In this document: piece after piece, positions 11,651 through 33,763 of the stretch | How the letters are laid out: each line of letters opens with the position of its first letter | Numbering within the stretch: the stretch's first letter is position 1 | NCBI GenBank assembly: GCA_040902005.1 | Contig: JBBDYA010000114.1 | Coordinates: forward strand, 10,180 to 74,179 | Source: Gemmatimonadaceae bacterium | Lineage (GTDB): Bacteria; Gemmatimonadota; Gemmatimonadetes; Gemmatimonadales; Gemmatimonadaceae | Direction of reading: 5' to 3' | Length of the DNA: 64,000 bases | Position numbers and translations under genes: made by a program | The notes under the pieces: model-generated | Database searches by the model: none | The model's input: the letters and a program-made list of their open reading frames with translations, nothing else | What the model was told of the DNA's origin: nothing

Positions 11651-11762
11651 GACCTGATTCTGTCTATCGCTCGCCGCGGACCATTCTCCGCGGCGAGCCT
11701 CTTCTGCCTGATCGTGTATAGTCCGATGGGCACCCGCACTCAGGCATGTAGTGGTTGAAGAA

Positions 11763-18125: not shown

Positions 18126-18740
18126 ATGGCCAGAATGTCTCAGCACGCGCAGGGAAAAGCACCGTCAAAGCGACGTCACGTTCGCGGGTTCACGCTCGCG
18201 GAGATCCTGATCGCGCTGGCGCTGATCGCGATTCTCGCGGCGGTGCTGCTGCCGACCGTGGCCGGCCAGATCCTGAAGGGAGATGCCGCACGGGTGATGC
18301 AGGATCTCGACGCCGTAAGAAGCGGTATGGACCAGTTTCTCGCTGACGTACACAGGTATCCTGGCAAGTACTCCGACCTGACCAAGGCGGTCGTTGCCAA
18401 CGACGTTGCCGACCATTCGGACATCAACGGCAATGCATATACGCCGGGCTTGGCTGGCAGATGGAGCGGGCCGTACGTCACGAAGGACACGATGAGCGGC
18501 GTCGTTGAGACCGGCTTTGGCGGAACAATTCACAACGTGTTCGTCAAGCGGCCGAACACCAACAATGTGGACTACGTCACTGTGCGGATCTTCGGGATCA
18601 CCGAGGCGGATTTTCTCCGGATCGACGAACAGATTGATGGCCCCAGCGCGACCGCCACCATTGCAAAGGAAACGGGTCTCTTCAGGTTCACGGCGGGGGT
18701 GGTAGATACGGTGAAGTTTCTCGCGACGCCGATTCAGTAG
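18126..18740 (+). CDS. GspG-like (pseudo)pilin 4
   Basis: ...KRRHVRG/FTLAEILIALALIAILAAVLLP with the motif WSGPYV. The protein ends ...LATPIQ. Confidence 0.8.
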   Translation: MARMSQHAQGKAPSKRRHVRGFTLAEILIALALIAILAAVLLPTVAGQILKGDAARVMQDLDAVRSGMDQFLADVHRYPGKYSDLTKAVVANDVADHSDINGNAYTPGLAGRWSGPYVTKDTMSGVVETGFGGTIHNVFVKRPNTNNVDYVTVRIFGITEADFLRIDEQIDGPSATATIAKETGLFRFTAGVVDTVKFLATPIQ

Positions 18741-18806
18741 TCATTGACGCAAGCGATCATTCACGCATTTTCCGGTAGCTCACTACACAAGTTCAGGAGA
18801 CAACGC

Positions 18807-19436
18807 ATGTTGAAGAATCGAGCAGGGCGGTCAGGGTTCACGCTTCCAGAAGTGCTGGTGACGGTGGCGATCGTGGCGGTGCTCGCGGCGGCCGTCGTTC
18901 CCACGGTGGTGAATCAGATCGGCAAGGGTGATGCAGCGTCGGTATCCGCAGAAATCAATTCCCTGACCGGTGCAGTGACCCAGTTCGTGACTGATACCCG
19001 GAGATATCCTGACCAGCTGGCTCATCTGAACACGCTCATATTGTCGGGGGACGATGACCTGCTGGGCACCGATTACGGCACGCGTGCCGTGGCCGGATGG
19101 AAGGGCCCCTACCTGGCGACGACGCAGGACATGGCAACCGACGATTTCACGTTCAGCAGCTTTGGCCTGGTGGCCGACAATGTCCTGATCGCCCCCGCTG
19201 CCGGCAACGGCCATCACATCACGCTGAACCTTGGCGCAACGACGACAATGTCACTGGCGACGTTGATTGCAATCGATCAGGGAATCGACGCGGGGGATGG
19301 AGTATTTGACCCTGATTGCGCCATCCCAGCAATATCAGCGAGCTCGACCAGCGGCCGTCTCACCTGGACTGAGGCTGCGGGCACGCCTTGCGTGATCACG
19401 AACATCATCTACCGGTTGGTTCCTGTCGGCTCCTAA
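18807..19436 (+). CDS. GspG-like (pseudo)pilin 5
   Basis: ATG 18807 follows AGGAGA. MLKNRAGRSG/FTLPEVLVTVAIVAVLAAAVVP with the motif WKGPYL. The protein ends ...RLVPVGS. Confidence 0.8.
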   Translation: MLKNRAGRSGFTLPEVLVTVAIVAVLAAAVVPTVVNQIGKGDAASVSAEINSLTGAVTQFVTDTRRYPDQLAHLNTLILSGDDDLLGTDYGTRAVAGWKGPYLATTQDMATDDFTFSSFGLVADNVLIAPAAGNGHHITLNLGATTTMSLATLIAIDQGIDAGDGVFDPDCAIPAISASSTSGRLTWTEAAGTPCVITNIIYRLVPVGS

Positions 19437-20055: not shown

Positions 20056-20490
20056 GTGCGCGCCGTGGATACCAATGTTCTCGTGTTCGCGGGGATCACC
20101 TCGAGTTCGCAGCATCTCCGCGCGCTCGAAGTGCTCCGCGAACTGAGCGAAGGCGCAGCCGCGTGGGCCATTCCCTGGCCGTGCCTGTACGAATTTCTGC
20201 GCGTCGTGACGCATCCACGTGTGTACCATCCGCCGATGCCGTACGAAGTGGCGCTACAGGACGTGCAGCGCATCATCGCCTCACCCTCGCTCGTTCTCCT
20301 GAGCGAGACGCCGCGACACGCCGAGGTCATGGCAGAAGTCATCCGTGATGGCGGAGCCACGGGCAACTTGATCCATGACGCGCATATCGTCGCGCTGTGT
20401 CTCGAGCACGGGGTGACTGAGATCGTCACTGGTGACCGCGATTTCCGGCGGTTCTCCGGCCTGAAGACATTCGATCCGTTCAGCGGATAG
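20056..20490 (+). CDS. vapC: PIN-domain ribonuclease toxin VapC
   Basis: VRAVDTNVLV carries the first acidic residue. ...LIHDAHIVALCLEHGVTEIVTGDRDFRRF is the typical PIN C-terminal motif. Confidence 0.85.
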   Translation: MRAVDTNVLVFAGITSSSQHLRALEVLRELSEGAAAWAIPWPCLYEFLRVVTHPRVYHPPMPYEVALQDVQRIIASPSLVLLSETPRHAEVMAEVIRDGGATGNLIHDAHIVALCLEHGVTEIVTGDRDFRRFSGLKTFDPFSG

Positions 20491-20667: not shown

Positions 20668-21207
20668 TCAGGGACGCGGGCGACTCTCCACGATGAACTT
20701 CCCCATCTCGAGACTCACCCCGAACCGCGCCGCGATGGCTTCCGCGCTCGCCGTGTTGATGTTCACCGCCAGCTGGTAGAACACCACCGGCGGCCACGGC
20801 GCCTGCGCATCACCCACCAGCACGGACAGGCCCGCATCAGCCATCAGCGCGCGCAGCGCGTCCACAGCCCGCACGTCGTGAAAGGCGACGTTCACCCGTG
20901 CGTTCACGTCCTGCGACAGCACGAGACTCACCTCCGCCTGCTGTGCCAGCCAGAGCACGAGGGTGCGCAGGTCGGCGTTCTGCGTGGTCAACGTGACGCG
21001 ACGGTTGCTGGCGCCGGCAAAAGGATCACGTGATGCGCGTTGGAGGGGGGGGAGGGGCACGATCGCCAGCGTATCACCCCCGGACGCGATCTCGTAGACC
21101 GGCAGGTCCGGAAGCGGGGGCCCGACCGTGACCGGCTGTGTGCGCCAGCAGCCCGAAAGACCCGCGGCAACGACAACGAGCATCAGCGCCAGCGGACGAC
21201 GGCGCAT
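20668..21207 (-). CDS. Lipoprotein with a secretin-N0/STN-like domain and a C-terminal ComEA-like helix-hairpin-helix
   Basis: MRRRPLALMLVVVAAGLSGC carries a lipobox. ADLRTLVLWLAQQAEVSLVLSQDVNARVNVAFHDVRAVDALRALMADAGL parallels the N-terminal domain of the adjacent secretin (DLGTVVRTLATRFGLQYQIDPAVHGTVNTTLRNTTLSEALDII). The C-terminal VNINTASAEAIAARFGVSLEMGKFIVESRP matches the ComEA HhH pattern NxNTAsxeeL. Confidence 0.55.
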   Translation of the reverse strand: MRRRPLALMLVVVAAGLSGCWRTQPVTVGPPLPDLPVYEIASGGDTLAIVPLPPLQRASRDPFAGASNRRVTLTTQNADLRTLVLWLAQQAEVSLVLSQDVNARVNVAFHDVRAVDALRALMADAGLSVLVGDAQAPWPPVVFYQLAVNINTASAEAIAARFGVSLEMGKFIVESRPRP

Positions 21208-21210
21208 CCG

Positions 21211-21858
21211 CTAGCGCACCCGCTCGCTCAACGCCTCGACGCGACGCCGCACATGCTCCACGTGGCCGGCAAGCCGGCCGGGCGCGGTGCGCACGAACGC
21301 GTTGTACGACCGGATGGCGCCCGCCCAGTCGCGCTCGAGCTCCAGCACCTGCCCGAGCGCGTAGTGGGCCTCGGCCACCGACGCATCCGACGCGAGCACG
21401 GCCTCCAGCAGCGCGCGAGACTCCTTCAGCGCGCCGACTGCGAGATACTGCTGCGCGAGACTCACGCGCGCGCTTGGATGCAGGGGGTCGATGCCGAGCG
21501 CGTGCTGAAACGCCGCGATCGCGTTGCTCGCCTGGCCGCGCTGCGCCAGCGCGGTGCCAAGGTTGTTCCACGCGCCGGCATTGCGCGGCGACAAACTCAC
21601 CGCTCTACGCAGCAGCGTTTCGGCGCGATCGAACTCACGCGTGGACGACAGTAGCACGCCCATGTTGTTCAGCGCGTCCACGTGATTCGGGTCCGTCGCC
21701 AGCACGCGCTCGTACGCGCCGCGGGCGGTTGCGAGGTCACCCGCGCGATGCGCCGCGACTCCCGCGGCGAATATCTGCGAGAGACTCGCCTCGCGCGCAT
21801 CCACCGCGATGTTGAGACGCCCAGGGCTCTCCGCATGCCGGACTGGCTGCGCCTGCAC
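21211..21858 (-). CDS. TPR-repeat protein (MshN-like position in the operon)
   Basis: There are several TPR units (AHRAGDLATARGAYERVLATDPNHVDALNNMGVLL..., AEAHYALGQVLELERDWAGAIRSYNAFV). The true 5' end is uncertain (see finding). Confidence 0.7.
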   Translation of the reverse strand: MQAQPVRHAESPGRLNIAVDAREASLSQIFAAGVAAHRAGDLATARGAYERVLATDPNHVDALNNMGVLLSSTREFDRAETLLRRAVSLSPRNAGAWNNLGTALAQRGQASNAIAAFQHALGIDPLHPSARVSLAQQYLAVGALKESRALLEAVLASDASVAEAHYALGQVLELERDWAGAIRSYNAFVRTAPGRLAGHVEHVRRRVEALSERVR

Positions 21859-22318
21859 GTCGCCCTGCGGTAGCGCTGCGGCGCTGTCGCGCGCAGGGCC
21901 AGCGGCAACCTGCGGCGCCTCCGGACGATCGGACGGCGCGACCGCCCGGTGCCGGCCGAACCGGCGCGGTCGTAGTGCGCGCCGAAGGCCTCGTCTGCGC
22001 TGGACGGCTGGCCACGTCGCGAAGCACCTGCGCGCTCGAATCGATCGCCGGCAACCCGGCGGCGACGTCGCTGATGAGCGGGGGCGACACGAGCGCCATC
22101 GGCTGGCGTCGCACGTCCTGCATCTTCACGAACACGACCCAGCCGGCGCCGAGGAGCACCGCGCCGCCGATGCCGATCATGAGCGCGCGCTGCCAGTTGA
22201 ACTCCCGCGCCGGTTGCGAACGCAGGGGAACCAACATCGGGGGAACGGCGGCGCTCGAGGCCGCGCGGCGCTCCTTTTCCCGCTGCGCGGCATTGGTGGC
22301 ATCGATGATGAGACTCAC
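21737..22318 (-). CDS. Bitopic membrane protein downstream of ExeA (ExeB/GspB-like position); the 3' part is probably misframed
   Basis: GTGA coupling to the exeA-like stop. MSLIIDATNAAQREKERR... with the TM helix WQRALMIGIGGAVLLGAGWVVFV. The last ~60 aa are R/G/C-rich junk that overlaps the TPR ORF by 122 nt. Confidence 0.45.
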   Translation of the reverse strand: MSLIIDATNAAQREKERRAASSAAVPPMLVPLRSQPAREFNWQRALMIGIGGAVLLGAGWVVFVKMQDVRRQPMALVSPPLISDVAAGLPAIDSSAQVLRDVASRPAQTRPSARTTTAPVRPAPGGRAVRSSGGAAGCRWPCARQRRSATAGRRAGAASPACGEPWASQHRGGCARGESLADIRRGSRGASRG

Positions 22319-23724
22319 GGCTGTGGCTCACCCGCAGGCACGACACGCCGCGTGGTGTCCGCGGTGGCCATGGCGTTGTCGGACACGGAATCCGCGGCCA
22401 GGCGGCGCGACTCGAACGCGACGCACTGCTCGGACATCGACGAATAATCAGCGGGGACTGCGCGCGTCGCGGCGACGGGAACGCGGCCGGCCGCGGCGCA
22501 GGCGCGGGCCGAGTCTCCGGCCGCGAAGAACGCCTTGGCAGTCCAGTACCGACCTTCGCCGATCGCCCATCCCGCAGGGTAATCTCGACCGAGCGTCTCG
22601 AGCGACCGCAGCGCGTCCTCGTTGGAGCCGCGCGTCAATTGCAACTGCGCGAGCCGGAGCAGTGCGTTCTCGCGCTGGCGCGATCCGGCGTAGTCGCGCG
22701 CGATGCGCGCGTAGAACTGTTCGGCCCGCACGGTGGACGGCGCGCGCGCTGCGCGCCACGCCAGCACCTCGGCGTTTCCATCCATTCCGAACCAGAGCGC
22801 GGCGAGGACCGCGGCCACGGCGGCGAGGGAGCCGCCAACCCACCACCGTCGCGAATGGCCTGAGGTGCTGAGCGTTTTCGCCGGCGCGGATGCGGCGGCC
22901 GACTCCATGCCGTCCTCGCCCTGAAGCGATGCGATGGCCTGGCGCACGTGCGCCTCCGAAATGCTGCGCGCCTGATCGGAGTAGCCAGCGAGCAACGCGC
23001 GATCCGTCGTGAGATTGATCAGACGCGGCACGCCCCGGGTGGCCGAGTGGATCAGGCGCACCGCCGTCTCCTGGAAACGCACGCGTCCCTGCGCGCCCGC
23101 CACGTTGAGGCGGTGGTAGAGATAGCGCCCGGTTTCGTCCTGCGTGAGATGCGTGAGCGTGCAGCGCACCGACACGCGCTGATCGAGCTGCGCCATCTGC
23201 GGCGTGCGGATCAGCGCCAGCAGCTCCGGCTGGCCCACGAGCACGATCTGAATCAGCTTTTCGCGCTCGGTCTCCAGGTTCGAGAGCACGCGGATCTGCT
23301 CCAGAAACTCCGTGGAGAGATGCTGCGCTTCATCGAAGATCGCGATGCACGTCCGTCCGTTCGCGAGCTGCTGGAGCAGGTAGGTGTTGAGCCGGTCGAG
23401 CAGCTCCTTGCGCGACGTGATGGTGGTGTCGCCCAACCCGAACTCCGACAGCAGCGCCTGGAGCATCTCCACGCCGTTGAGGAACGGATTGAAGAGCAGC
23501 GCCACGCGGAAGCGTTCCGGGTCCAGCTTCTCGAGTAGGTCGCGGCAGAGGGTGGTCTTCCCCGTGCCGGGCGCGCCCGTGACGAGCATGAATCCTTCCT
23601 TCTGCCCGATGCCGTAGCGCAGCGACTCCTCGGCAACGCGATACTGGTCGGACTGAAAGACGAAGCGAGGATTCGGCGTGAGCGAGAACGGCTTTTCCGT
23701 CAATCCGAAAAACTGTTCGTACAT
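22315..23724 (-). CDS. ExeA/GspA/MshM-type AAA ATPase with a TM segment and a periplasmic TPR-like domain
   Basis: MYEQFFGLTEKPFSLTPNPRFVFQSDQYRVAEESLRYGIGQKEGFMLVTGAPGTGKTTLCR is the hallmark ExeA N-terminus with a Walker A motif. Walker B is CIAIFDEAQHL. A TM helix (WWVGGSLAAVAAVLAALWF) is followed by a YbgF-like TPR region. No peptidoglycan-binding domain is present. Confidence 0.85.
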   Translation of the reverse strand: MYEQFFGLTEKPFSLTPNPRFVFQSDQYRVAEESLRYGIGQKEGFMLVTGAPGTGKTTLCRDLLEKLDPERFRVALLFNPFLNGVEMLQALLSEFGLGDTTITSRKELLDRLNTYLLQQLANGRTCIAIFDEAQHLSTEFLEQIRVLSNLETEREKLIQIVLVGQPELLALIRTPQMAQLDQRVSVRCTLTHLTQDETGRYLYHRLNVAGAQGRVRFQETAVRLIHSATRGVPRLINLTTDRALLAGYSDQARSISEAHVRQAIASLQGEDGMESAAASAPAKTLSTSGHSRRWWVGGSLAAVAAVLAALWFGMDGNAEVLAWRAARAPSTVRAEQFYARIARDYAGSRQRENALLRLAQLQLTRGSNEDALRSLETLGRDYPAGWAIGEGRYWTAKAFFAAGDSARACAAAGRVPVAATRAVPADYSSMSEQCVAFESRRLAADSVSDNAMATADTTRRVVPAGEPQP

Positions 23725-23740
23725 CTGCTGCTCGCTGCTC

Positions 23741-25393
23741 CTACCGGCCGGCCGGCGGCTGGCCGGCGATGATGGTGGGTGTCAGGAAGATCACCAGTTC
23801 GGCCTTGCGCTCGATCTGCACCTCGCGCGAGAAGAGACGTCCCAGCAGCGGAATGGACCGCAGTCCGGGCACGCCGCTTTTCACGGTCTCCACGCGATTC
23901 TGCATCAGGCCGCCGATGACGATCGTCTCCCCCTCGCGCAGGCGTGCCATCGTGTCCGATTCGCGCGTGTCGATGACCGGCGCCTGGAAGAGCGTGCCGT
24001 CCGCGCTGGTAAAGCTCGCGGTGCGGGCCACGCTCGTGACGACCGGGCGGATGTTCATCGTGACGCTGTTGTCGGCCCCGATCTGCGGCAGCACGTCGAG
24101 CACGATGCCGACGTTCACTTGCGTGGGGTTCACCGTGGAGGTGAAGCCGGTGATCGCGCCGGTGGGGCCGATGATGGGCTCGCGCTGGAGATTGAACACG
24201 ATCTCGCCGGTGGTCACGTTGAACACCGCGCGCTGGTTGTTGAGCGCGGAGACGCGCGGGCTGGACAGGACGCGCACGTCGCCCTGCGAGGAAAGCGCGG
24301 TGAGCACGGCGGAGATCTCGGTGGTACCGGCGCTCAGGCGCAGCTCGACATTCGGGCCGAGCCGGCCGCCGCCGGGACTCAGTTTACCGGCGGCGTTGCT
24401 GCCCACCACCACGTTCCAGTCGATGCCGAACTCGTAGCTGCGATCGAGGTTCACCTCGACGATCTTCGCCTCGATCAGCACCTGCCGCTGCACCGACGAC
24501 TCGAACGTGCGGATGAACAGCTCGATCTGGTCGAGGCGATCGGTGAACGCGCTGACGGTGATCGTTCCGGCGATGGGATTGATGATGAGGCGACGGCCGT
24601 CCGGGGCGTTACGGCTGTACGGGCGGCCACCACCCTGGAGCCCCATCCCCGCGGACGCGGCATTCTGCGCCTGTGGCTGACCGGCGCCGTCCGTGGCGCC
24701 ATCGAAGACGAGCGCGTCCATCGCGACGCGAATCTCCTCCCAGACGTCCGCGACCGAGACCGCGCTGATGACGTCCGCGCCGCCGCCGAGACCGCCGCCG
24801 AACCCACCGGCGCCCGCGCCGCCGGCTGCGGCGCCGCCCTGCGAGCCGATGGCACCGCCCTGGTTACCGCCGATTCCGCTGCCGCCCAGGCGGCGCTGGA
24901 TCACGGTGGAGGCCGTGCCCACGCGCGACAAGGCGACGTAGTCCAGCGAAAAGATCCGGGTTTCCATCCGCGACGGCCCGACGCGCAGCACGCCGTTGCG
25001 GATCTCGTACTGCACGCCCTGCGGCATGATGATGTCGAGCGCTTCACTGAGCGTGGTGTTTCGCAGCGTGGTGTTGACGGTGCCGTGCACCGCGGGATCG
25101 ATCTGATACTGGAGCCCGAACCGCGTGGCGAGCGTGCGGACGACCGTGCCGAGATCCTGATTCACGGCGGTGAGGCTCTGCAGGCGCGGCGCGCTCCCCT
25201 GGGAAATCGCGGCTCCCGAAGAGAGCGGGGGCAGACTGGGAAGCGGCGCCTCGCCGGACGACGCGGAGGCGGGTGGCTCGAGGCGAACACTTGTCTGCGG
25301 CGCGACCACCTTCGGCGAGCTCGCGCACGACGCCATGAGTGCCAGTGCAGCGGCGCCCGCGGCACCGGCGATTCGACCTGTCGGGAAATGCAT
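23741..25393 (-). CDS. Secretin (GspD/PilQ/MshL family), lipoprotein type
   Basis: The signal and lipobox are ALALMASCASS. N0-like domains are present, plus a Gly-rich insert. The C-terminal secretin core is VRVLSSPRVSALNNQRAVFNV...VKSGVPGLRSIPLLGRLFSREVQIERKAELVIFLTPTII. Confidence 0.9.
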   Translation of the reverse strand: MHFPTGRIAGAAGAAALALMASCASSPKVVAPQTSVRLEPPASASSGEAPLPSLPPLSSGAAISQGSAPRLQSLTAVNQDLGTVVRTLATRFGLQYQIDPAVHGTVNTTLRNTTLSEALDIIMPQGVQYEIRNGVLRVGPSRMETRIFSLDYVALSRVGTASTVIQRRLGGSGIGGNQGGAIGSQGGAAAGGAGAGGFGGGLGGGADVISAVSVADVWEEIRVAMDALVFDGATDGAGQPQAQNAASAGMGLQGGGRPYSRNAPDGRRLIINPIAGTITVSAFTDRLDQIELFIRTFESSVQRQVLIEAKIVEVNLDRSYEFGIDWNVVVGSNAAGKLSPGGGRLGPNVELRLSAGTTEISAVLTALSSQGDVRVLSSPRVSALNNQRAVFNVTTGEIVFNLQREPIIGPTGAITGFTSTVNPTQVNVGIVLDVLPQIGADNSVTMNIRPVVTSVARTASFTSADGTLFQAPVIDTRESDTMARLREGETIVIGGLMQNRVETVKSGVPGLRSIPLLGRLFSREVQIERKAELVIFLTPTIIAGQPPAGR

Positions 25394-25394
25394 G

Positions 25395-25877
25395 TTATGG
25401 CCTGACCGTGGACATGGTGAGCGCGCGGTGCTGCCCGTTTCGCTCCATCACGGCGACGCGGTCCGCGCGGATGGCGGTGATACGCGCGCCGTCCGACAAC
25501 ATGTCGCCGACACTTACCACGGTACCGTCAATCACCGCGACAGGTCTGTCATCCGCAATAAGGATCGCAGTCAACTGCCGTGTGCGCCTGGATGCACTAA
25601 CAGTAGGAGTGCCCGGCGTCGGCGCAACGTCTAGTTGGCGGCGTGCCGAGACGAATGGGTCGAATTGGAGGCGAACTTCCGGGCGATCGAAGGGCAAACC
25701 GACCAGCCCCGGCGTCATGAACGCACCAACGTCGTCCATCGCGTCGTCGCGTGCCGTCGCCGGCCCGCGCGGGTCGGCCGACAGTTGCTCAACCGTCAGG
25801 GCGACCAGCGCCGCGGTCACCAGTAGCGCCGCGTTCCAGAGATGACCGAAGAGCGTTTGGGGGGGTTGGTGCGCCAT
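25395..25877 (-). CDS. PilP/GspC/MshK-like periplasmic component
   Basis: An N-terminal TM helix (LWNAALLVTAALVALTV) is followed by a C-terminal beta domain, LTAILIADDRPVAVIDGTVVSVGDMLSDGARITAIRADRVAVMERNG, which is typical of the PilP/HR domain. Confidence 0.55.
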   Translation of the reverse strand: MAHQPPQTLFGHLWNAALLVTAALVALTVEQLSADPRGPATARDDAMDDVGAFMTPGLVGLPFDRPEVRLQFDPFVSARRQLDVAPTPGTPTVSASRRTRQLTAILIADDRPVAVIDGTVVSVGDMLSDGARITAIRADRVAVMERNGQHRALTMSTVRP

Positions 25878-26460
25878 TTGGATAGGTGAGTTGAAATACG
25901 GCCAGCGAGATCCGGTGCCTGCTGCCTCCGTCCTGTCGCACCAGACTCAGTTGCGTCGCCGCGGCCGACGGCGGAAGCTGACCGAGAAAGGCAATCACCG
26001 ACTGCATTCCACCGCGACCTTCGACGACGAGACCGAAGGGTGCCGGCGTACGGCCGATCCCCCCGGTAGAAAGACGCGTCTCCAGCCCAGTTGTATCAGA
26101 AGGGCCGACGAGGACCCGCACGTCCTGCAGCCCGGCGGACTCTGCCGCACGTGCCACGGAGCGCGTCACCCCGAGACGCTCTTCCTCCCCGACCCCCAGG
26201 TTCTGGAGCTCCATCCAAGTTCGGCGCCACGCAATGGACTCCGCGGCAACAGCAGGCTCATACCGCCGCCTCAGGTCCGCGAACCCCACGAGTGCCGCCT
26301 GGACCCGGGTAATCTCCGCGCGGCGGGCCGCTCCGCGACGAGTGGCGTTGACCGCGGCCCACGCGAGGACGGCGATCGAGAGCACGGCGGCGACCAGGCG
26401 CGTCCAGGCAGGGTCGATCGGTGGAAGGCGCAGCGCGCCGACGGAGAATGACGGTGCCAT
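25789..26460 (-). CDS. PilO/GspM/MshJ-like bitopic component
   Basis: TGATG coupling. The TM helix is LVAAVLSIAVLAWAAV, followed by a coiled segment and a ferredoxin-like tail (...GMQSVIAFLGQLPPSAAATQLSLVRQDGGSRHRISLAVFQLTYP). The 3' end overlaps the next gene by 89 nt. Confidence 0.5.
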   Translation of the reverse strand: MAPSFSVGALRLPPIDPAWTRLVAAVLSIAVLAWAAVNATRRGAARRAEITRVQAALVGFADLRRRYEPAVAAESIAWRRTWMELQNLGVGEEERLGVTRSVARAAESAGLQDVRVLVGPSDTTGLETRLSTGGIGRTPAPFGLVVEGRGGMQSVIAFLGQLPPSAAATQLSLVRQDGGSRHRISLAVFQLTYPNGAPTPPNALRSSLERGATGDRGAGRPDG

Positions 26461-27920
26461 CAGTCCCGCACGCCCATCGGCAGCTCGAAGGAGAGCTGGA
26501 ACTGGAGACGCGCCGCCCCGCCCGGAGCCGTTGCGTCCCGATAGGCCATCTCGTCGAGCGCCAGCCCTTCGACCGACAGCCGCAGCGGCAGACGGCGATA
26601 GAAATCGTGCAGCCCCTGCACGGCCAGGCCATTGGACTGGGCCGAGACAGTGCCTCTGAGTTGCGCCAGCCAACCGGAGGCGCCTCTATCGAGTTGCAGC
26701 GAGTCCAGTCGGACCGGCCCCGCGACGGCGCCCGCGATGGCCGCGAGCGCGCGCTGGAGCTCGACACGGTCCGCATCGGCGTATCGCAACGCGGTGACCG
26801 CGTCGCGGACGATCTTCCGATGGCTGGCGGTGGCGCGCATGGGCAGCATGGCGAACGATTCCTGCTGCACCTGGCTGCGGGCGTCGCGCAGGTCGTTGGC
26901 AGCGGTTCGCGCCGACAGGGCGGCGAACATCGCCCAGGCGCCGACCAGCGCGGCCGCAGCGACGGCCGCCCATGACGCTTGATGCAGTCGGGTTGCGGCG
27001 CCCGCCGGGCGCCTCCCCGCGGTGGAACCGGCGAGCGCCAACGGATGCGCCGACTGGGCGTCGAGCACGGCGCCCATGGCCGCGAGCGCGGCTGCCGGGA
27101 GTCCATGCACGTCCAGGCGCTGCACGGGCAATCCCAGGCGCTCGGTGAGGCGGCCTTCAACGTCGGCGAAGGAATCGCCGCCGTGCGCGACGGTGACCCG
27201 CTCCACCTGCGCGCCGCGAAACTGCTGGCGCACGAAAATGGCCCCGAGCTCGAGTTCCTCCACGATGGACGCACTGTCCGGACGGTCGTCGGCGTCCGCG
27301 AGCGGCGGTTCCACGGCGAGTCGCAGCGCGCCGGCAAGAAAAAATCCGATAAAGACGCCGTCCGGGAGGGGAGCGACGATGGCTGTGGTCTCGCGCGCAT
27401 CGATCAGCTCCTCCTCCAGGCGCTGAATGGCGGCAGGGAGGGCGGTGAGATGGAGCAGCCGGTGTCCGGCGCCACGCAGCGCGGAGTCGAATGCGTCGAT
27501 CGTCTCGGGCGAACACGCGGCAACGAGCACCTGTCGCTGCGGCATCACATCCGGCGGCGGCGCGGCTTCGGTCGGGAGCGGGGTCCACGCAATGACGGGG
27601 GGGGGATCGGCCAGTTGCGGCTCCAGCCGGCGCAGCTCGCGGTCCACGATGGTCCCGAGCAGGTCGTCGGGAGCGGGCGGAAAGCCGAGGACGTGGTGCA
27701 CGACGTCGAAGCCGCGAAGGGCGATCGCGACGCTGGCGCCGCGAATGTTCTGCGCGGCCAGCGCACCGACGAACCGTGCGGCCGCGTCCCGCGCGCTTCC
27801 GAGGGGGGAGGGCGCCGGCACGCTGAACGTGCGCTCGACCTCCATGCCGGCGCCGCGCCGTCGCGACTCGATCGCGAACACGCCGCGCGGACAGATGTAC
27901 GCGCCGATCACGCGACTCAT
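26460..27920 (-). CDS. GspL / PilM-PilN fusion-like (MshI-like) assembly protein
   Basis: ATGA coupling to gspF. A cytoplasmic actin-like domain (MSRVIGAYICPRGVFAIE...) is followed by a TM helix (AAVAAAALVGAWAMFAAL) and a periplasmic domain. The upstream 193 aa of ORF 26460..28499 are rejected. Confidence 0.6.
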   Translation of the reverse strand: MSRVIGAYICPRGVFAIESRRRGAGMEVERTFSVPAPSPLGSARDAAARFVGALAAQNIRGASVAIALRGFDVVHHVLGFPPAPDDLLGTIVDRELRRLEPQLADPPPVIAWTPLPTEAAPPPDVMPQRQVLVAACSPETIDAFDSALRGAGHRLLHLTALPAAIQRLEEELIDARETTAIVAPLPDGVFIGFFLAGALRLAVEPPLADADDRPDSASIVEELELGAIFVRQQFRGAQVERVTVAHGGDSFADVEGRLTERLGLPVQRLDVHGLPAAALAAMGAVLDAQSAHPLALAGSTAGRRPAGAATRLHQASWAAVAAAALVGAWAMFAALSARTAANDLRDARSQVQQESFAMLPMRATASHRKIVRDAVTALRYADADRVELQRALAAIAGAVAGPVRLDSLQLDRGASGWLAQLRGTVSAQSNGLAVQGLHDFYRRLPLRLSVEGLALDEMAYRDATAPGGAARLQFQLSFELPMGVRD

Positions 27921-29125
27921 CGCCGGATCCCGATGGTGTTGTAGATGTTCAGGATCGGGAGCATGATCGCGAGCGCCACCATCAGAATCACGCCGCCGAG
28001 GATGACGATCATCATCGGCTGGATCAGCGTGATCACGCGGCGCACCGCCGCCGGAATCTCTCTCGCGTAGTACAACTTCGCGCGCTCGAGCGACTGATCG
28101 AGCTGACCCGTGGATTCGCCGAGCGCGAGACTGCGCATGACCACGGTGGGCACGAGTGCGGATTTCGCGAAGGCGGTGGCCATCGTCTCGCCGCCAGCGA
28201 TGGCGGCGCGCGCGTCTCGCACCACCCGCCCGACCACGCGGTTCGTGGCCATCTGCTCCACCAGGAGCAGCGACTGCAACAGGTTCACTCCCGTGCGATA
28301 GAACAGACTCAGGTACGTGACGACGCGCGCCATGTTGACCTCGAGCACGAACTGCCCAATCACCGGCAACTTGAGGATCAGCGCGTCCAGTGCATACCGC
28401 CCGCCCTCGCTGCGACGGATGGCGGCCAACGCGATGACCGTGGCGATGACGCCCAACAGCAGCATCAGCCAGTGATCCCGGACCATCACGGACGACCACA
28501 TGATGATGCGCGTGGGAAGCGGAAGCTCGACCTGGCGCAACTGGAGGATGGGGATCAGCCGTGGAAAGGCGAAGCCGACGAGTCCGACGACGAGCAGCGA
28601 GATCGCGCCGAGCACGACGATCGGGTACATCGTGGCCTGGCGGACGGACGACGTGATGGTCTCCTGCCAGTCGAGATACTCGACGAGCTGCTGGAGCGAG
28701 AAGGCCAGCTGTCCACTGGCCTCGCCCGCCTGGATCGTCGAGATGAAGAGCGGGGGAAATGCCTTCGGATGATCGGCCATCGCGTCGGACAGGCTCTTGC
28801 CCTCGTTCGCGACGGCATCGCGCACCTCGGTGACGATGATCTTGAGTCGCGGGGACTTGATCCGCTTCGGGATGTCGTCGAGGATCGAGAGGAGGGGAAT
28901 GCCGGCAGTGAATGACCCGGCGAGGTACTCGAGGAAGGCGAGCAGCTCCTTGCGGTCCACCTTGCCGTCCGTCACGCGACGCGTTTGCGCGCGCACCCGC
29001 GTCTTGATCAGGAACGATCCCTTGAGGCGCAACTGCTCCTCGAGCTGGATCTCGCTGGGGGCGCTGATGATTCCCTCCTCGACGGTTCCGCTCCCGGTCA
29101 GCGCCTGATACCAGAAATCGGGCAC
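27917..29125 (-). CDS. gspF: Type II secretion / type IV pilus platform protein (GspF/PilC/MshG family)
   Basis: There are two T2SSF repeats (FLEYLAGSFTAGIPLLSIL..., ...LLLVEQMATNRVV.., ESTGQLDQSLERAKLYYAREI) and three TM segments. The start is GTG. Confidence 0.9.
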   Translation of the reverse strand: MPDFWYQALTGSGTVEEGIISAPSEIQLEEQLRLKGSFLIKTRVRAQTRRVTDGKVDRKELLAFLEYLAGSFTAGIPLLSILDDIPKRIKSPRLKIIVTEVRDAVANEGKSLSDAMADHPKAFPPLFISTIQAGEASGQLAFSLQQLVEYLDWQETITSSVRQATMYPIVVLGAISLLVVGLVGFAFPRLIPILQLRQVELPLPTRIIMWSSVMVRDHWLMLLLGVIATVIALAAIRRSEGGRYALDALILKLPVIGQFVLEVNMARVVTYLSLFYRTGVNLLQSLLLVEQMATNRVVGRVVRDARAAIAGGETMATAFAKSALVPTVVMRSLALGESTGQLDQSLERAKLYYAREIPAAVRRVITLIQPMMIVILGGVILMVALAIMLPILNIYNTIGIRR

Positions 29126-29138
29126 GCGGTCTCCGGCC

Positions 29139-30884
29139 TCAGGCGGTGACGCGCAGGATTTCGTCGAGCGTCGTCAACCCCGCCCGCACCTTGCGCAATC
29201 CGTCCTGGAGCAGCGTGGGGCGGCCGGAGTCCGCGTGGATCTGCTCCGGCGCGGTGCGCTCGTGAATCGCGGCCACGATGTCGGGTGACATGGGGAGCAG
29301 CTCGAGGATCGCGATGCGCCCGAGGTACCCCGTGTTGCGGCAGCGCGAGCAGCCGCGCGGGCCGAACAGCGTGACGTCGTCGAGGCCGAACCGCTTCCGG
29401 ACGGCGCCGGGCATGTCCACCTTCGCCTTGCACTCGGCGCACAAGACGCGCACCAGGCGCTGGGACACGAGCATCGTCACCGCGGACGCGATCACGAAGG
29501 GCTCGGCACCCATGTCGAGCAGACGGGGAATCGTGCCCGCCGCCGTCGTGGTATGGAGCGTGGTGAGCACCAGGTGGCCCGTGAGCGCGGCGCTGAGCGC
29601 GATCTGCACCGTTTCATGGTCGCGCATTTCGCCGACCAGGATGATGTCGGGATCGTGTCGCAGGATGGAACGCAGTCCCGTGGCGAACGTCAGTCCCGCC
29701 CGCACGTTCACCTGCGACTGCCGGATCTGCGCCATCTCGTACTCGATGGGATCCTCGAGCGTGATGATCGCGCGGTCGCCGGTGTTGAGCTCGGCCAGCG
29801 CGGCATAGAGCGTCGTCGTTTTGCCGGAGCCGGTGGGTCCGGTGACGGGAATCAGGCCGTGCGGCCGCCGGAGGGCGTTGCGCAGCAGCAGCAGGTCGTC
29901 GGCCTCGATCCCGAGCTTCTCGAGCTGAAGGGGCACGCGCCCGCGGTCGAGGATACGCAGGACGATGTCCTCGCCGTGCAGCGTGGGGAACGTGGACACG
30001 CGCAGGTCCACGCTGTTGTTGCCGGCGCGGACGCGGACGCGACCGTCCTGCGGCAGGCGGGAGTCGGCGATGTCGAGGTTGCAAAGAATCTTCACGCGGC
30101 TGATGAGGGCCGATTGCGCCGCCTTGGGGAAGCTCTGTCCATCGGTGAGCAGCCCGTCGATGCGGTATCGGATGCGCAACTGATCGTCCACCGGCTCGAT
30201 GTGGATGTCGGTGGCGCCCATCTCGATGCCGCGCCGGATCACCTCGTCGATGACGCCGGCCGCGTTCTGCTCGTCGCCCGGGGCGGCGCGCGCGGCCGCG
30301 GGCGCCGGCCATCCCGCGCGCGGGGCGCCGCGCGCTCCGGCGGCTGCGTCCGAACCGCGCGCCAACTCGAGTCGCGGCGCCGACGACGTGGCTGGCGCGC
30401 CGGCGACCGGCAGGGAGACGCCGGCTCCAGCGCCGGCGGCTGCCATGCGCGCTGCGCCGGCATACGCGTGTTCGATGGCGCGAAGCACGACGCTGCGTTC
30501 GGCGCCGACCACCCGAATGGAACGGCCCGCCGCGCGCGTCAGCGAGCGGATGCTCAGCAAGTCGAACGGGTCGGCCATGGCGAGCACGAGATGCCGGCTT
30601 TCGACCCTGGCGGGAACGACTGAGTGCTGGCGGGCGAGCTCGAGGGGGATGAGCGCGACGGCGGCGGCGTCCGGCTGGATCTCCGATTCGGTGACGAACG
30701 GGATCCCGGCGTCAGCGCAGAGCGTCTTGAGCAACGCGGTCTCGTCCAGGTAGCCGAGCGAGACAAGGGCCTGACCCAACTTCTGGCCGCTCGAGTTCTG
30801 GACGGCGAGCGCTTCGTCGAGCTGCTGCTTTGTCACGAGGCCGGCGTTGAGCAGCGTATCGCCGAGCCAACGCCTCACGGCCAT
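29139..30884 (-). CDS. gspE: Type II/IV secretion ATPase (GspE/PilB/MshE family)
   Basis: The N-terminal T2SSE_N domain is LVTKQQLDEALAVQNSSGQKLGQALVSLGYLDETALLKTL. Walker A is GPTGSGKTTT. Asp and His boxes are present, as is the tetracysteine CAECK...CSRCRNTGY. A long Ala/Gly/Pro linker is present. Confidence 0.9.
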   Translation of the reverse strand: MAVRRWLGDTLLNAGLVTKQQLDEALAVQNSSGQKLGQALVSLGYLDETALLKTLCADAGIPFVTESEIQPDAAAVALIPLELARQHSVVPARVESRHLVLAMADPFDLLSIRSLTRAAGRSIRVVGAERSVVLRAIEHAYAGAARMAAAGAGAGVSLPVAGAPATSSAPRLELARGSDAAAGARGAPRAGWPAPAAARAAPGDEQNAAGVIDEVIRRGIEMGATDIHIEPVDDQLRIRYRIDGLLTDGQSFPKAAQSALISRVKILCNLDIADSRLPQDGRVRVRAGNNSVDLRVSTFPTLHGEDIVLRILDRGRVPLQLEKLGIEADDLLLLRNALRRPHGLIPVTGPTGSGKTTTLYAALAELNTGDRAIITLEDPIEYEMAQIRQSQVNVRAGLTFATGLRSILRHDPDIILVGEMRDHETVQIALSAALTGHLVLTTLHTTTAAGTIPRLLDMGAEPFVIASAVTMLVSQRLVRVLCAECKAKVDMPGAVRKRFGLDDVTLFGPRGCSRCRNTGYLGRIAILELLPMSPDIVAAIHERTAPEQIHADSGRPTLLQDGLRKVRAGLTTLDEILRVTA

Positions 30885-31013: not shown

Positions 31014-32093
31014 TCACGGTCTCCAGTCCGCGATGAACACGTCGGTTCCCCCCGGTGTGGGTGAGTTCCGGTTGGAGGCCCAGACCAGCCGAGTGCCGTC
31101 CGGGCTGAACATCGGGAAGCCGTCGAATTCTTCGTGCATCGTTACCTGCTCCAGCCCGGTGCCGTCGAGGTTCACGAGGAAGAGGTCGAAGTTGCGACTG
31201 CGTGGATTGCGGTAGTTCGACGAGAAGATGATCTGGCGCCCGCCCGGCGCGAAAATCGGCGCGAAGTTGGCGCCGCCCAGGTTCGTGATCTGCCGCTGGT
31301 TGGACCCGTCGGCGTCCATGATCCAGAGTTCCATGCGGCTGGGACGCACGAGCCCCCGGCGCAGCAGGTCCCGGTAGGACTCCAGTTCGGGACCGGTGGG
31401 GCGCATCGCGCGATACACGATGTGCCTGCCGTCCGGAGAGAAGAACGCTCCGCCGTCGTAGCCGGGCGTGGTGGTCAGCCGGCGGACGTTGGTGCCGTCG
31501 AGGGCCATCGTGTAGATGTCGAGATCCCCGTCCTTGAGCGACGTGAACACGATGGTGCTGCCGTTCGGGGAGAGCGTGGCCTCCGCGGTATAGATGCCGT
31601 AGTTCGTGAGCCGGCGGCGGTCGGACCCATCGCGGTTGGCGGTATAGAGGTCGAATGAGTCCAGACGCCACACGTATCCACTGGACGCATCGGGACTCGG
31701 CGGGCAGGTGGTGTCCACGGCGTGGGTCGACGCATAGACGATCTTCTGGCCGCCGTCGAAGAAGTATCCGCACGTGGTCTTGCCGGTGCCGTCCGACACG
31801 CGGCGCAGGTCCGAACCGTCCACTCGCATGACGTACTGTTGGTCGCAACTGCGTCCGTCCCGGCTGGACTGAAAGATCAGCCACTGACCATCGGGGCTGA
31901 AGTACGCTTCCGCGTTCTCGCCGCCGTAGGTGAGCTGTCGGATGTTGGCGAGGTGCGACTCGCCCGCGGCGGCGGCGACCATCCTGGGTGTGGCGGTGCC
32001 AGAGGCGGATCCCACCAGTGTGCGCGCGCACGCGCCTGACGTGAAAACCGCCGTCGCGCTGAGCGCGATGGCGGTGAATGCGAACCGTGTCAT
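31014..32093 (-). CDS. Secreted TolB-like PD40 beta-propeller protein
   Basis: A signal peptide (MTRFAFTAIALSATAVFTSGA) is followed by repeated PD40 units (YFSPDGQWLIFQS, LSPNGSTIVFTSLKDGDLDIY, FFSPDGRHIVYRA, IFAPGGRQIIFSS, MFSPDGTRLVWAS). Confidence 0.8.
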   Translation of the reverse strand: MTRFAFTAIALSATAVFTSGACARTLVGSASGTATPRMVAAAAGESHLANIRQLTYGGENAEAYFSPDGQWLIFQSSRDGRSCDQQYVMRVDGSDLRRVSDGTGKTTCGYFFDGGQKIVYASTHAVDTTCPPSPDASSGYVWRLDSFDLYTANRDGSDRRRLTNYGIYTAEATLSPNGSTIVFTSLKDGDLDIYTMALDGTNVRRLTTTPGYDGGAFFSPDGRHIVYRAMRPTGPELESYRDLLRRGLVRPSRMELWIMDADGSNQRQITNLGGANFAPIFAPGGRQIIFSSNYRNPRSRNFDLFLVNLDGTGLEQVTMHEEFDGFPMFSPDGTRLVWASNRNSPTPGGTDVFIADWRP

Positions 32094-32167: not shown

Positions 32168-33763
32168 TTACGGACGCCGCGCGGTGCTCGCCGCTGGCGC
32201 CGCCGCCTCGGCAAGGTTGAAGAGGTCGCGCTGCGTCTGGCCCCTGTTCATCATGTCGATCGCTTTCTGCAGCACGTTGTCATACCTGAGCTGACGTCGC
32301 GCCACGGCGGAATCGCCCATGGCATACCGGAACGCAAACCGCTCGATCTCCTTGTCGAGCCAGCGGCTTCCCCCTTCCCACTCCACCGAATCCACGACGA
32401 GGCCGCGAGCGACGGTGCGTCGGAAGAGTTCCGCGCGCCACGCCGCCTGGTTCTCGCCTTCCCGCGGCAGCCGCTTCGACAGCTCGAGCGCGTAGTCCTG
32501 AAGCGCGTTCGAGAACTCCTGCGCCTTGGGGGACAGCTTCCTGAGCAGCGTCTGTTCCGCGGTCGTGAGCGTGTCGCTCGGCACGATGACGTCTGGCGTG
32601 ACGCCGCCGCCGCCATACACCACGCGGCCGCCGTCCGACTTGAAGGCCGGCCGGTCCTTCTTGCTGGCGTCCGTCTCGAGCGAATCCGTGGCCGTGTCTT
32701 CCACGAACCGGCCGTCAACATACTTGCGTTCCCGCTGAATGGAGCGTCCGCTGGGGGTGAACCACTTGGCCGTGGTAAGCTTGAGCGCGTAGCCGCCGTC
32801 CAGGTTGAAGACGGACTGCACGAGTCCCTTGCCGAACGTCGTCTGCCCCACGATCACGGCACGATCGTGATCCTGAAGGGCGCCGGCCACGATCTCACTG
32901 GCAGACGCCGAGCGACCATCCACGAGCACGATGAGTGGCGTGGTGGGGAGCGCGGGTTGCGAGCGCGCCACGTATGACTGCGATTCGCCGCTGCGAGCGC
33001 GCACCGAAGCGATCTCGGAGCCTGCTGGCAGGAACAGGTTGCTGACCGTGAGCGACTGCTCGAGAATGCCACCTGGATTCTCGCGCAGGTCGATGATCAC
33101 ACCCTTGGCACCCCGCCGCGTCATGTCGCGGATGGCCTTTTCCAGTTCGGTCGCCGCGTTCTCGTTGAAGGTGTTGAGCGGAACGTACCCGACGGAGCCG
33201 AAGAGGATGCCGAATGGAACCGCCGGTACATGCACGATGGCGCGCGTGAACGTGATGTCCAGCGGCTGCGCGACGCCTGGGCGCGAGAACTTGACGCGGA
33301 CCTTGGTGCCCGGCGTGCCGGTCAGGCTGTCGGCCGTGATCGCCGTCGTCCATCCGCGCGTGGAATGCGTGTCCACCTGGATGATGCGGTCACCCTCGCG
33401 AATCCCATTGCGCTCGGCGGGGGAATTGGGGAACACGCGCTCCACGACGATCATCTCGTCGCGTGGCAGAATCGACATGCCCAGTCCGCCGTAGCGGCCG
33501 CCGGTGCGAGAGGAAAACTGCTTCATCTGGCTGGGCGACAGCAGCTCGGTGTACGGGTCGTTCAGCTCGCGCACCAGACCGCGGGCGGCCTTCTCGTACA
33601 TGGCGCCCTGCGGCAGCGTGTCAACGAAGCGCTCCGACACGAGCGAGAGCACCTGCTCCAGCAGCATCGGCCCTTCACGGACGGCACGCGACTGGAGGAG
33701 GAACCCGCCGGCGAGCAGCGGAAGAAGAATGACGCCTACGGCGGCGAGCCTGGGACGACGCAT
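32168..33763 (-). CDS. ctpA: S41 family C-terminal processing peptidase (Ctp/Prc-like) with a PDZ domain
   Basis: The PDZ segment is VFPNSPAERNGIREGDRIIQVD. The catalytic region is IIDLRENPGGIL...LVDGRSASASEIVAGALQDHDRAVIVGQTTFGKGLVQ. An extra C-terminal domain is present. Confidence 0.9.
   Translation of the reverse strand: MRRPRLAAVGVILLPLLAGGFLLQSRAVREGPMLLEQVLSLVSERFVDTLPQGAMYEKAARGLVRELNDPYTELLSPSQMKQFSSRTGGRYGGLGMSILPRDEMIVVERVFPNSPAERNGIREGDRIIQVDTHSTRGWTTAITADSLTGTPGTKVRVKFSRPGVAQPLDITFTRAIVHVPAVPFGILFGSVGYVPLNTFNENAATELEKAIRDMTRRGAKGVIIDLRENPGGILEQSLTVSNLFLPAGSEIASVRARSGESQSYVARSQPALPTTPLIVLVDGRSASASEIVAGALQDHDRAVIVGQTTFGKGLVQSVFNLDGGYALKLTTAKWFTPSGRSIQRERKYVDGRFVEDTATDSLETDASKKDRPAFKSDGGRVVYGGGGVTPDVIVPSDTLTTAEQTLLRKLSPKAQEFSNALQDYALELSKRLPREGENQAAWRAELFRRTVARGLVVDSVEWEGGSRWLDKEIERFAFRYAMGDSAVARRQLRYDNVLQKAIDMMNRGQTQRDLFNLAEAAAPAASTARRP

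Follow-up and report, generated by a model that had tools for sequence, protein, structure and literature searches.

The mannose-sensitive hemagglutinin (MSHA) pilus of Vibrio cholerae belongs to a class of type IV filament machines, MSH, that is defined by mshA together with mshE, mshG, mshL and mshM and has been reported in Gammaproteobacteria, Epsilonproteobacteria and Chrysiogenetes, with most other phyla described as lacking it (Denise et al. 2019, PMC6668835). In V. cholerae, MSHA includes the MshD, MshO and MshP tip pilins and MshQ (PMC13533445), its retraction ATPase is PilT (PMC7096442), and cyclic di-GMP (c-di-GMP) acts through MshE (PMC7096442, PMC9815625). A search of the literature yielded nothing specific on MSHA or type IV filaments in Gemmatimonadota, and the supplements of Denise et al. 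2019 (PMC6668835) do not mention this phylum. Here we analyze a 64,000-nucleotide stretch of DNA from a Gemmatimonadaceae bacterium (GenBank assembly GCA_040902005.1, contig JBBDYA010000114.1, positions 10,180 to 74,179 of the forward strand; hereafter the window), a high-GC sequence (about 67%) whose nearest relatives are uncultured Gemmatimonadaceae. The locus formed by an operon at 20668-30884 and nearby pilin genes probably encodes a lineage-specific form of the MSH-type filament machine, present in uncultured Gemmatimonadota and, in a simpler form, in Terriglobia. We regard it as a known machine in rearranged form and not as one of a new kind.

Like V. cholerae MSHA and other MSH systems, the window carries in a single locus an MshE-like ATPase (with an MshEN domain), a lipoprotein secretin closest to MshL and homologs of MshG, a fused MshI, MshK, MshM and MshN, together with a positional MshJ, and it keeps the internal order I-J-K-L-M-N. 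It differs from them in that E and G stand in front, that the pilins are five GspG-like paralogs, divergent from the operon and paired with a BTAD regulator, with no recognizable MshD/O/P or MshQ, that MshM has a transmembrane (TM) segment and a periplasmic TPR-like tail, that an additional lipoprotein with an N0 fold is encoded, that the ATPase is not nested in MshE in a rough tree, and that the host phylum is Gemmatimonadota. The MSH model of MacSyFinder TFF-SF (Denise et al. 2019), by which membership was considered, lists mshA/E/G/L/M as mandatory and mshI/J/K/N as accessory genes. An earlier sequence-only reading of the window had noted that it holds neither a prepilin peptidase nor a retraction ATPase, and Pfam indeed detected no Peptidase_A24 and no PilT among the called genes of the 64-kb window. 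The same reading took the missing peptidase as non-canonical, which does not stand, as all published MSH loci are without one (PMC6668835); the lack of both genes is in fact expected, since published MSH loci have no peptidase and V. cholerae MSHA uses PilT.

Layout and conservation of the operon

The operon is a tightly packed, co-directional string of nine genes on the minus strand that starts at 30884 and ends at 20668. The gene for an mshE-like extension ATPase (581 aa, 29139..30884; Pfam T2SSE and MshEN) is followed after a 13-nt gap by that for an mshG/gspF-like inner-membrane platform protein (402 aa, 27917..29125; Pfam T2SSF), which overlaps by 4 nt the gene for an mshI-like PilM-PilN fusion (486 aa, 26460..27920; recognized by hhalign against MshI1). 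A 1-nt overlap leads to the gene for an mshJ/PilO-like bitopic protein (223 aa, 25789..26460; TM 18-41), assigned by position and topology, and an 89-nt overlap, identical in a relative locus (L001), to that for an mshK/PilP-like protein with an N-terminal TM segment or signal anchor (160 aa, 25395..25877; hhalign). Next come the genes for an mshL-like lipoprotein secretin (550 aa, 23741..25393; Pfam Secretin, NCBIfam MshL) after a 1-nt gap, for an mshM/ExeA-like AAA+ protein (469 aa, 22315..23724; Pfam AAA_22, identity to MshM) after a 16-nt gap, and, with a 4-nt overlap, a frameshift-split mshN-like gene (21211..22318; relatives' single ORFs, hhalign). A 3-nt gap separates the latter from the last gene, encoding an N0/STN-like lipoprotein with a short C-terminal two-helix tail resembling a helix-hairpin-helix (HhH) (179 aa, 20668..21207; structure model and Foldseek). 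The junctions are thus short, with only the mshJ-mshK overlap reaching 89 nt, and the co-directional, coupled operon proposed by the sequence-only reading is borne out. A scan for promoters and terminators returned nothing above chance and does not define the ends of the operon.

Long plus-strand open reading frames (ORFs) with high third-position GC lie antisense over the mshI-like and mshJ-like genes (25891-27944) and represent a trap for automatic annotation. A heuristic based on third-position GC favored these ORFs, which we rejected as genes; the minus strand is the coding one here, as the conservation of its proteins in relatives shows.

The sequence-only reading counted ten genes, treating a bitopic and a TPR protein as separate products of the region here assigned to mshN. 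The two ORFs concerned (21737-22318 and 21211-21858) share 122 nt but are read in different frames, and codon-position GC indicates that coding switches frame near 22000. Between them they hold the parts of one MshN-like protein, namely a cytoplasmic MSLIxDA motif, a TM segment, a Pro/Ala linker and a TPR domain. In relatives, mshN is a single ORF (358-403 aa in Gemmatimonadaceae including L001 and L002; 423 aa in the Terriglobia locus L003; 396 aa for Vibrio MshN, L064) whose product has MSLIxDALK at its N terminus, a single TM segment, a linker of low complexity and TPRs at its C terminus, the MSLIxDALK motif being common to Vibrio and Marinobacter-type MshN. Related soil-metagenome contigs have a net 8 nt more at 21942-21948, which restores a single frame, and the mended protein matches MshN (hhalign, 98.6%, E 7e-15). 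Because relatives hold a single ORF and 8 nt restore the frame, we count nine genes, one of them split; the bitopic ORF, considered as a separate GspB-like gene, was rejected, being the N-terminal half of mshN. A 13.9-kb sediment-metagenome contig is identical to the window including the frameshift, at a word depth of 12.8. The gene is thus probably truly frameshifted in the population, a consistent assembly error being possible but less likely.

Scans that considered one genome per species and used the ATPase, an alignment of the secretin and the ExeA-like protein as queries found this layout in at least 45 Gemmatimonadota species represented by metagenome-assembled genomes (Gemmatimonadaceae, Gemmatimonadales and Longimicrobiales), uncultured soil and sediment bacteria. 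The common arrangement starts with genes for an S41 protease and a PD40 protein, neither of them invariant, continues with E-G-I-J-K-L-M-N and the N0 lipoprotein gene, and is followed by one to several pilin genes on the opposite strand and then, mostly, by a regulator gene of BTAD-AAA-TM-PD40 build. The closest locus (L084/L162; ATPase 76% identical) matches the window gene for gene, except that it has neither the VapBC nor the AbiEii-like insertion. Terriglobia loci likewise run E-G-I-J-K-L-M-N; a Peptidase_A24 gene comes next, the pilins lie further downstream, and the N0 lipoprotein is missing. Whereas all Gemmatimonadota and Terriglobia relatives share this order, the canonical MSH order is I-J-K-L-M-N-E-G, and proteobacterial MSH loci (Vibrio, Marinobacter, Deefgea, Silvimonas, Campylobacterales) read L-M-(N)-E-G. 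The permuted order with E and G first, which the sequence-only reading had pointed out, is therefore a single move of the E-G block to the front, fixed in the lineage, with I-J-K-L-M-N kept.

ATPase, scaffold proteins and secretin

The ATPase matches Pfam T2SSE (418 bits) and, at its N terminus, MshEN (71 bits); GPTGSGKT forms its Walker A motif, and a tetracysteine is arranged as CxxC...CxxC. The PilB model TIGR02538 covers it at full length (residues 7-580, 507 bits; cut-off 676) and the GspE model TIGR02533 only over residues 210-580 (model positions 111-486, 516 bits; cut-off 630). Its N terminus matches the N-terminal domain of MshE as solved in 5HTL (E 1e-15), and a GspE-type N1 (GspL-binding) domain was not found in the protein, where MshEN stands instead. 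Judged by these domains, the architecture is that of PilB/MshE and not of GspE. Among solved structures, PilF (448 bits) and PilB (416-423) score highest, above EpsE (365); the PilF of Thermus thermophilus and the PilB of Geobacter, which have the same type of N-terminal domain (c-di-GMP-binding MshEN/GSPII), differ from the window ATPase in that the latter has a single MshEN, two non-canonical motif residues and an MSH-like rather than a pilBCD context. The MshEN c-di-GMP motif has been described as two tandem 24-residue repeats, RLGxx(L/V/I)(L/V/I)xxG(L/V/I)(L/V/I)xxxxLxxxLxxQ, with a 5-residue joint (Wang et al. 2016, PMC5013675). The window ATPase scores 58.5 bits with the corresponding NCBIfam domain, above its cut-off of 38, and keeps the spacing and every G/L core position, so that control by c-di-GMP is plausible. 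Elsewhere in the window, 22 kb from the ATPase gene, a response regulator fused to HD_5 (HD-GYP-type) adjoins a histidine kinase (52750-55064, minus strand) and is a candidate c-di-GMP phosphodiesterase.

The platform protein, encoded directly after the ATPase, matches Pfam T2SSF in two stretches, a family-level match. All curated models stay below cut-off, GspF scoring best (293 bits), and the protein is 50-72% identical across Gemmatimonadota relatives. The remaining unnamed scaffold proteins were compared by hhalign, using small Gemmatimonadota and Terriglobia alignments against Msh alignments from ten gammaproteobacterial MSH loci. The 486-aa protein matched MshI1 (99.1%, E 6.6e-18, residues 1-292) and the 160-aa protein MshK (97.9%, E 2e-12), which, with the MshN match of 98.6% and a secretin whose best model is MshL, agrees with the MSHA-like gene content recognized by the sequence-only reading. 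The mshI-like protein comprises a cytoplasmic actin-like part (1-314), a predicted TM segment (315-337) and a periplasmic remainder, and is read as a PilM-PilN fusion because of that TM segment; in size and architecture it equals the fused MshI of Vibrio (479 aa), most other gammaproteobacteria splitting MshI into two genes. Identity among relatives is 30-47% for the mshI-like and 25-59% for the mshJ-like protein, and the C terminus of the mshK-like protein has weak Pfam matches to Y4YQ_C, T2SSC (21 bits, cut-off 27) and CdsD_C.

None of the operon proteins matched Pfam T2SSL, T2SSM, PilM_2, PilN, PilO or PilP. For the mshI-like and mshJ-like proteins neither Pfam nor NCBIfam yielded a match, and for the mshK-like one every match stayed sub-threshold. 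For these three proteins the lack of matches is uninformative, because genuine Vibrio MshI, MshJ and MshK score none or weakly themselves (in NCBIfam, MshI and MshK have no match and MshJ a sub-threshold one, and their Pfam matches are mostly weak). By hhalign, GspL-, GspM- and GspC-type references, consisting of E. coli EtpL/M/C and Comamonas L/M-type proteins, gave at most 5.8%, at the limited sensitivity of single reference sequences. A type IVa pilus set of PilB, PilT and PilMNOPQ is not recognizable in the window either, PilB staying below cut-off, PilT being absent and PilQ scoring below MshL. On sequence comparison the scaffold is homologous to the Msh proteins at I, K, M and N and, judged by its best model, probably at L, and J is assigned by position. 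The sequence-only reading saw here a mixture of T2SS (type II secretion system) and MSHA hallmarks. Little of this is left, given an ATPase of PilB/MshE type, no match to GspL/M/C and pilins that resemble GspG only below threshold; the T2SS share of the mix is this sub-threshold resemblance of the pilins.

The secretin scores 137 bits with Pfam Secretin and weakly matches STN-like and Secretin_N_2 models, and it has a cysteine after its signal peptide, indicative of a lipoprotein. Among curated models MshL fits best (TIGR02519, 217.2 bits; cut-off 250.2), ahead of GspD (155) and PilQ (132). A neighbor-joining tree of the secretin domain, built without PilQ references, put the Gemmatimonadota proteins in one clade with all MshL and MshM-adjacent secretins and left EtpD and those of PVC outside it, at 64.5% bootstrap, the clade including gamma-, beta- and epsilonproteobacterial MSH members as well as Terriglobia, Nitrospirae and Nitrospinales. 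The mshM-like and mshN-like genes follow the secretin gene exactly as in MSH loci.

Over about 265 aa, the AAA+ protein shows 33-38% identity to the product of the gene after mshL in MSH loci, those of Vibrio and Marinobacter among them. Its Pfam matches are to AAA_22 (95 bits) and TPR_6 (26.4 bits); in NCBIfam it scores 286 bits with pepcterm_ATPase, which is below cut-off, and matches YbgF over residues 332-384. Its AAA domain is cytoplasmic, and one TM segment is predicted at 294-314, followed by a periplasmic tail that some relatives have and others do not. No peptidoglycan-binding domain was detected by Pfam or NCBIfam, which upholds the earlier description of an ExeA-like protein lacking this domain and carrying a periplasmic TPR-like part in its place, the TPR/YbgF-like match of the tail being weak. 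In the T2SS of Aeromonas and Vibrio, ExeA and ExeB (GspA/GspB) are a pair that assists secretin assembly, and the window pair resembles them in combining a cytoplasmic ATPase that has one TM segment and a periplasmic domain with a bitopic partner and a secretin. It differs from them in that the tail is TPR/YbgF-like rather than peptidoglycan-binding and that the partner is an MshN-type TPR protein.

The gene for the 179-aa lipoprotein ends the operon in most Gemmatimonadota relatives and is absent from Terriglobia relatives. All of its 140 database homologs are about 180 aa long and unnamed ("hypothetical"), and two of them match PF07660 (STN). An AlphaFold2 model (mean pLDDT 87.5) gave as top Foldseek matches the N0 domain of PilQ (4ar0, E 1e-3) and those of XcpQ, EscC and GspD, further matches being the signaling domain of a TonB-dependent receptor and DotD (E 0.075). 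The model thus supports a free-standing secretin-N0 fold as the core of the protein. DotD of the Legionella Dot/Icm system is likewise a small lipoprotein made of about one N0-like domain, and its gene too accompanies those of an outer-membrane channel complex; the secretion system it belongs to is another one, the similarity is one of fold only, and the window protein has the extra HhH-like tail. This tail consists of two helices with a conserved ComEA-like sequence, VNxNTASxExIAxRFGV, and a sub-threshold Pfam match to HHH_3 (E 0.0099). Of the "N0-HhH lipoprotein" of the sequence-only reading, the N0 part is confirmed by fold and the HhH part remains weak, resting on that Pfam match. In two Terriglobia loci, a 201-aa Peptidase_A24 gene directly after mshN occupies the slot of the lipoprotein gene (L116, 13669-14274; L120, 13615-14220); in L120 the next genes encode a membrane protein of 490 aa and a protein of 466 aa whose start resembles a response-regulator receiver, and pilins follow.

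Pilins, regulator and neighboring genes

Five prepilin genes lie on the plus strand beyond the end of the operon. Pilin 1 (223 aa, 10979..11650) matches N_methyl and scores 36.4 bits with the GspG model TIGR01710. Pilin 2 (197 aa, 11751..12344) has the class III signal GFMLIE, N_methyl at 18.3 bits (cut-off 21.2) and GspG at 28.9 bits over its N-terminal part only. For pilin 3 (196 aa, 12344..12934) the scores are 19.7 bits with N_methyl (same cut-off) and 42.1 with GspG; for pilin 4 (204 aa, 18126..18740), an N_methyl match and 40.7 bits with GspG; and for pilin 5 (230 aa as called, 18744..19436), whose start is probably an internal methionine, an N_methyl match, T2SSG at 21.8 bits (cut-off 21) and GspG at 45.4 bits. 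The five are collinear paralogs of about 200 aa, 24-33% identical, that share a W-x-G-P-Y motif. A regular-expression scan in six frames found only these five class III signal peptides in the whole window, and all belong to this one paralogous family, which agrees with the earlier statement that no minor pseudopilins (H/I/J/K) are encoded here; matches to GspH, GspI and GspJ (E 2e-4 to 9e-3) fall on or near the N-terminal helix, GspK gave none, and the window holds no large gene of GspK/PilX-like or MshQ-like type. That same reading assigned the span 10979-19436 to GspG-like pilins throughout, which holds for the five pilins, their GspG matches being sub-threshold; the span also contains an AbiEii-like gene and the BTAD regulator.

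Pilin 4 is the best candidate for the major subunit, because a copy of it is kept beside the operon in nearly every relative (32-56% identity) and because it is well conserved (55-96% identity among 120 listed database relatives). Its AlphaFold2 model is poor (pLDDT 68.8, pTM 0.36), and the Foldseek matches obtained with it, to kinases at E >0.09, are meaningless. Pilin 3 has an ortholog in the corresponding place in L084/L162 and in further close relatives. Some Gemmatimonadaceae loci (L101, 14843-16576; L104, 14846-16553) encode, between the N0 lipoprotein and the pilins, an extra membrane protein that is polytopic, about 577 aa long and without a Pfam match; as a guess, it might be a pilin-modifying enzyme.

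Between pilins 3 and 4, on the minus strand, lies the gene for a predicted membrane-bound regulator (1363 aa, 13797..17888; Pfam BTAD, AAA_16 and PD40) made of an N-terminal BTAD/AfsR-type part, AAA_16, a predicted TM segment (749-770) and a periplasmic PD40 propeller. It stands beside pilin genes in more than 20 Gemmatimonadota loci. Between this gene and pilin 3, at 12950-13887 on the minus strand, an AbiEii-like nucleotidyltransferase (188 aa) is encoded with an upstream 124-aa ORF that has no Pfam match; the two may form a type IV toxin-antitoxin module. A VapBC-type pair (FitA-like ribbon-helix-helix antitoxin, 81 aa; PIN toxin, 144 aa; 19807-20490, plus strand) separates the end of the operon from pilin 5 and was not seen at that place in L084/L162.

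Pfam places a PD40 (TolB-like) propeller protein (31014..32093, minus strand, five PD40 stretches, 129 nt from the ATPase gene) and an S41 C-terminal processing protease with a PDZ domain (32168..33763, minus strand) upstream of the operon on the same strand, as previously described. The PD40 protein precedes E in many Gemmatimonadaceae loci (63-75% identity) and the protease does so in more than 20 Gemmatimonadota loci (52-75%), making them conserved neighbors and, by position only, putative partners of the machine. Just upstream of the protease gene, 34098-34955 (minus strand) matches Pfam RPA, "replication initiator protein A" (E 5e-18), which raises the question of a plasmid, a chromid or an integrated element. 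Farther along are a resistance-nodulation-division (RND) efflux set (38793-44633, minus strand) with an AcrB-family pump (1056 aa), an outer-membrane factor (480 aa) and room between them for an adaptor gene, a MerR-type regulator close to it (37385-37927), and adjacent type I (55956-57314, plus strand) and type III (57424-59697, minus strand) glutamine synthetases.

Competing explanations and biological meaning

Several observations weigh against assigning the locus to MSH. No class-specific equivalog model (PilB, GspE, GspF, MshL, GspG) reaches its cut-off. The five pilins score best with the GspG model, at 29-45 bits, all below its cut-off of 88.85, and tip pilins of the MshD/O/P type (GspI/J/K-like) and MshQ were not recognizable in the window, although they may be encoded elsewhere in the genome. 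By hhalign, the 486-aa protein matches MshI2 weakly, if collinearly (17.5%, E 3e-4), as does the 223-aa protein MshJ over its full length (8.8%, E 1e-3). The ATPase core is 42-52% identical to all classes and about equally distant from them. In a rough neighbor-joining tree of this core, it groups with gamma- and epsilonproteobacterial MshE in 0.5% of bootstraps, the Gemmatimonadota ATPase clade having 100% support and all deeper nodes less than 40%, and because of these low values the tree neither confirms nor excludes MshE membership. The phylogenies grouped the secretin with MshL at 64.5% bootstrap and did not join the ATPase to gamma/epsilon MshE; a firm placement of both in a described class with the same gene order was not obtained, as the order differs from that of MSH and the ATPase is not firmly placed. 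In the MshEN domain, motif I starts with W instead of R (an R precedes it) and motif II ends, at position 24, with D instead of Q. Both residues fall outside the relaxed pattern of PMC5013675, W at the start of motif I being common to the closest subclade and RLG being found in most other Gemmatimonadota, and because these two key residues differ, coupling to c-di-GMP stays an inference. Finally, there was no cultured strain among the hits, and mshN is frameshifted in this genome, which makes doubtful the earlier description of the machine as complete and implies that it may be impaired here.

The locus could instead encode a T2SS-like secretion machine in which the GspG-like proteins make up a short pseudopilus in the periplasm, by which folded proteins are driven out through the secretin, perhaps with the S41 or PD40 protein among the cargo. 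GspG is the best model for every pilin, and the window yielded no retraction ATPase, but the GspG scores are far below cut-off, the pilins are about 200 aa long against a 134-position model, and true pilins resembling pseudopilins are already known, according to the title of a published report (PMC5131608). ATPases of the c-di-GMP-binding MshEN type are known in T2SS-like clusters (PMC5013675, PMC4624772), such as those represented by a Comamonas plasmid (L160) and by P. aeruginosa PA14_29490, with which the window shares the E-F-first order. The Comamonas ATPase, from a cluster annotated E-F-G-H-..-K-L-M-D, is the most similar plasmid-borne one, at 46% identity over the full length, N-terminal domain included, and 51% over the core. 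Comamonas-type clusters, however, encode GspG, GspH, GspK, a PilN-domain protein, GspM and GspD and no MshK/M/N-type genes, and hhalign detected no similarity of window proteins to the L/M proteins of that cluster or to EtpL/M/C. An ExeA-like protein is a T2SS accessory as well, but neither GspH/I/J/K nor GspC/L/M turned up, it is MshI, MshK and MshN that the assembly proteins match, and the secretin is MshL-like; we therefore regard a secretion machine as unlikely. Far less likely still is a DNA-uptake (competence) pilus whose lipoprotein would bind incoming DNA at the secretin through its HhH tail, as ComEA does. The tail does resemble the HhH of ComEA, and the same lipoprotein has weak NCBIfam matches to PilQ/HofQ N termini. 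Its HhH match is nonetheless below threshold and concerns a single two-helix element, GVS stands where ComEA typically has a glycine-rich hairpin, the window contains no comEC, comF or dprA, and Terriglobia relatives do without the lipoprotein gene.

Two further explanations strike us as rather doubtful, if less so than a secretion machine. The machine may be decaying or inactive in this genome, the loss of 8 nt from mshN and the inserted toxin-antitoxin genes reflecting relaxed selection. The frameshift parts the TM anchor from the TPR domain, recurs in the independent sediment assembly and is missing from related populations, which have the 8 nt; every relative tested has a single mshN ORF, and the VapBC and AbiEii-like genes stand where L084/L162 has none. 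All other genes of the operon are nevertheless intact and at full length, assembled contigs can hide minority variants, and decay would in any event be compatible with a machine of MSH type rather than an alternative to it. It is also conceivable, at a similarly low probability, that the E-G-I-J-K-L-M-N systems are a deep branch of their own, neither MSH proper nor T2SS nor type IVa pilus (T4aP), which would pair an MSH-type scaffold with a GspG-type fiber, no I/J/K tip and a free N0 lipoprotein. Such a branch could lie near the split of MSH/T2SS from T4aP and could show a scaffold and a pseudopilus-type fiber combined.

If the locus is of MSH type, as we consider probable, its product would most likely be an adhesive pilus for surface attachment. 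The five prepilins, with their class III signals, would be cleaved by a peptidase encoded elsewhere, and the hexameric PilB/MshE-type ATPase would drive the MshG platform so as to polymerize the pilins, with the MshEN domain perhaps coupling assembly to c-di-GMP. The fused MshI, the MshJ-like protein and MshK would bridge the platform and the lipoprotein secretin of MshL type, which would form the outer-membrane pore and which, by analogy with ExeA/ExeB and MshM/MshN, may be helped to assemble by the MshM/ExeA-like AAA+ protein and MshN. Its fold and position suggest that the N0 lipoprotein probably docks on the secretin or on MshK, and the conserved adjacency of the BTAD-AAA-TM-PD40 protein to the divergent pilin genes suggests that it probably controls them.

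Gemmatimonadota and Terriglobia are abundant soil groups whose surface biology is almost unknown, and a scaffold of MSH type is conserved throughout this lineage of uncultured Gemmatimonadota and is also found in Terriglobia. The locus supplies a rearranged MSH operon, an uncharacterized family of N0 lipoproteins and a transmembrane BTAD-PD40 regulator tied to pilins. It reveals no new principle; its value lies in annotation, through better type IV filament models beyond the proteobacteria, and in a candidate adhesion machinery of soil bacteria.

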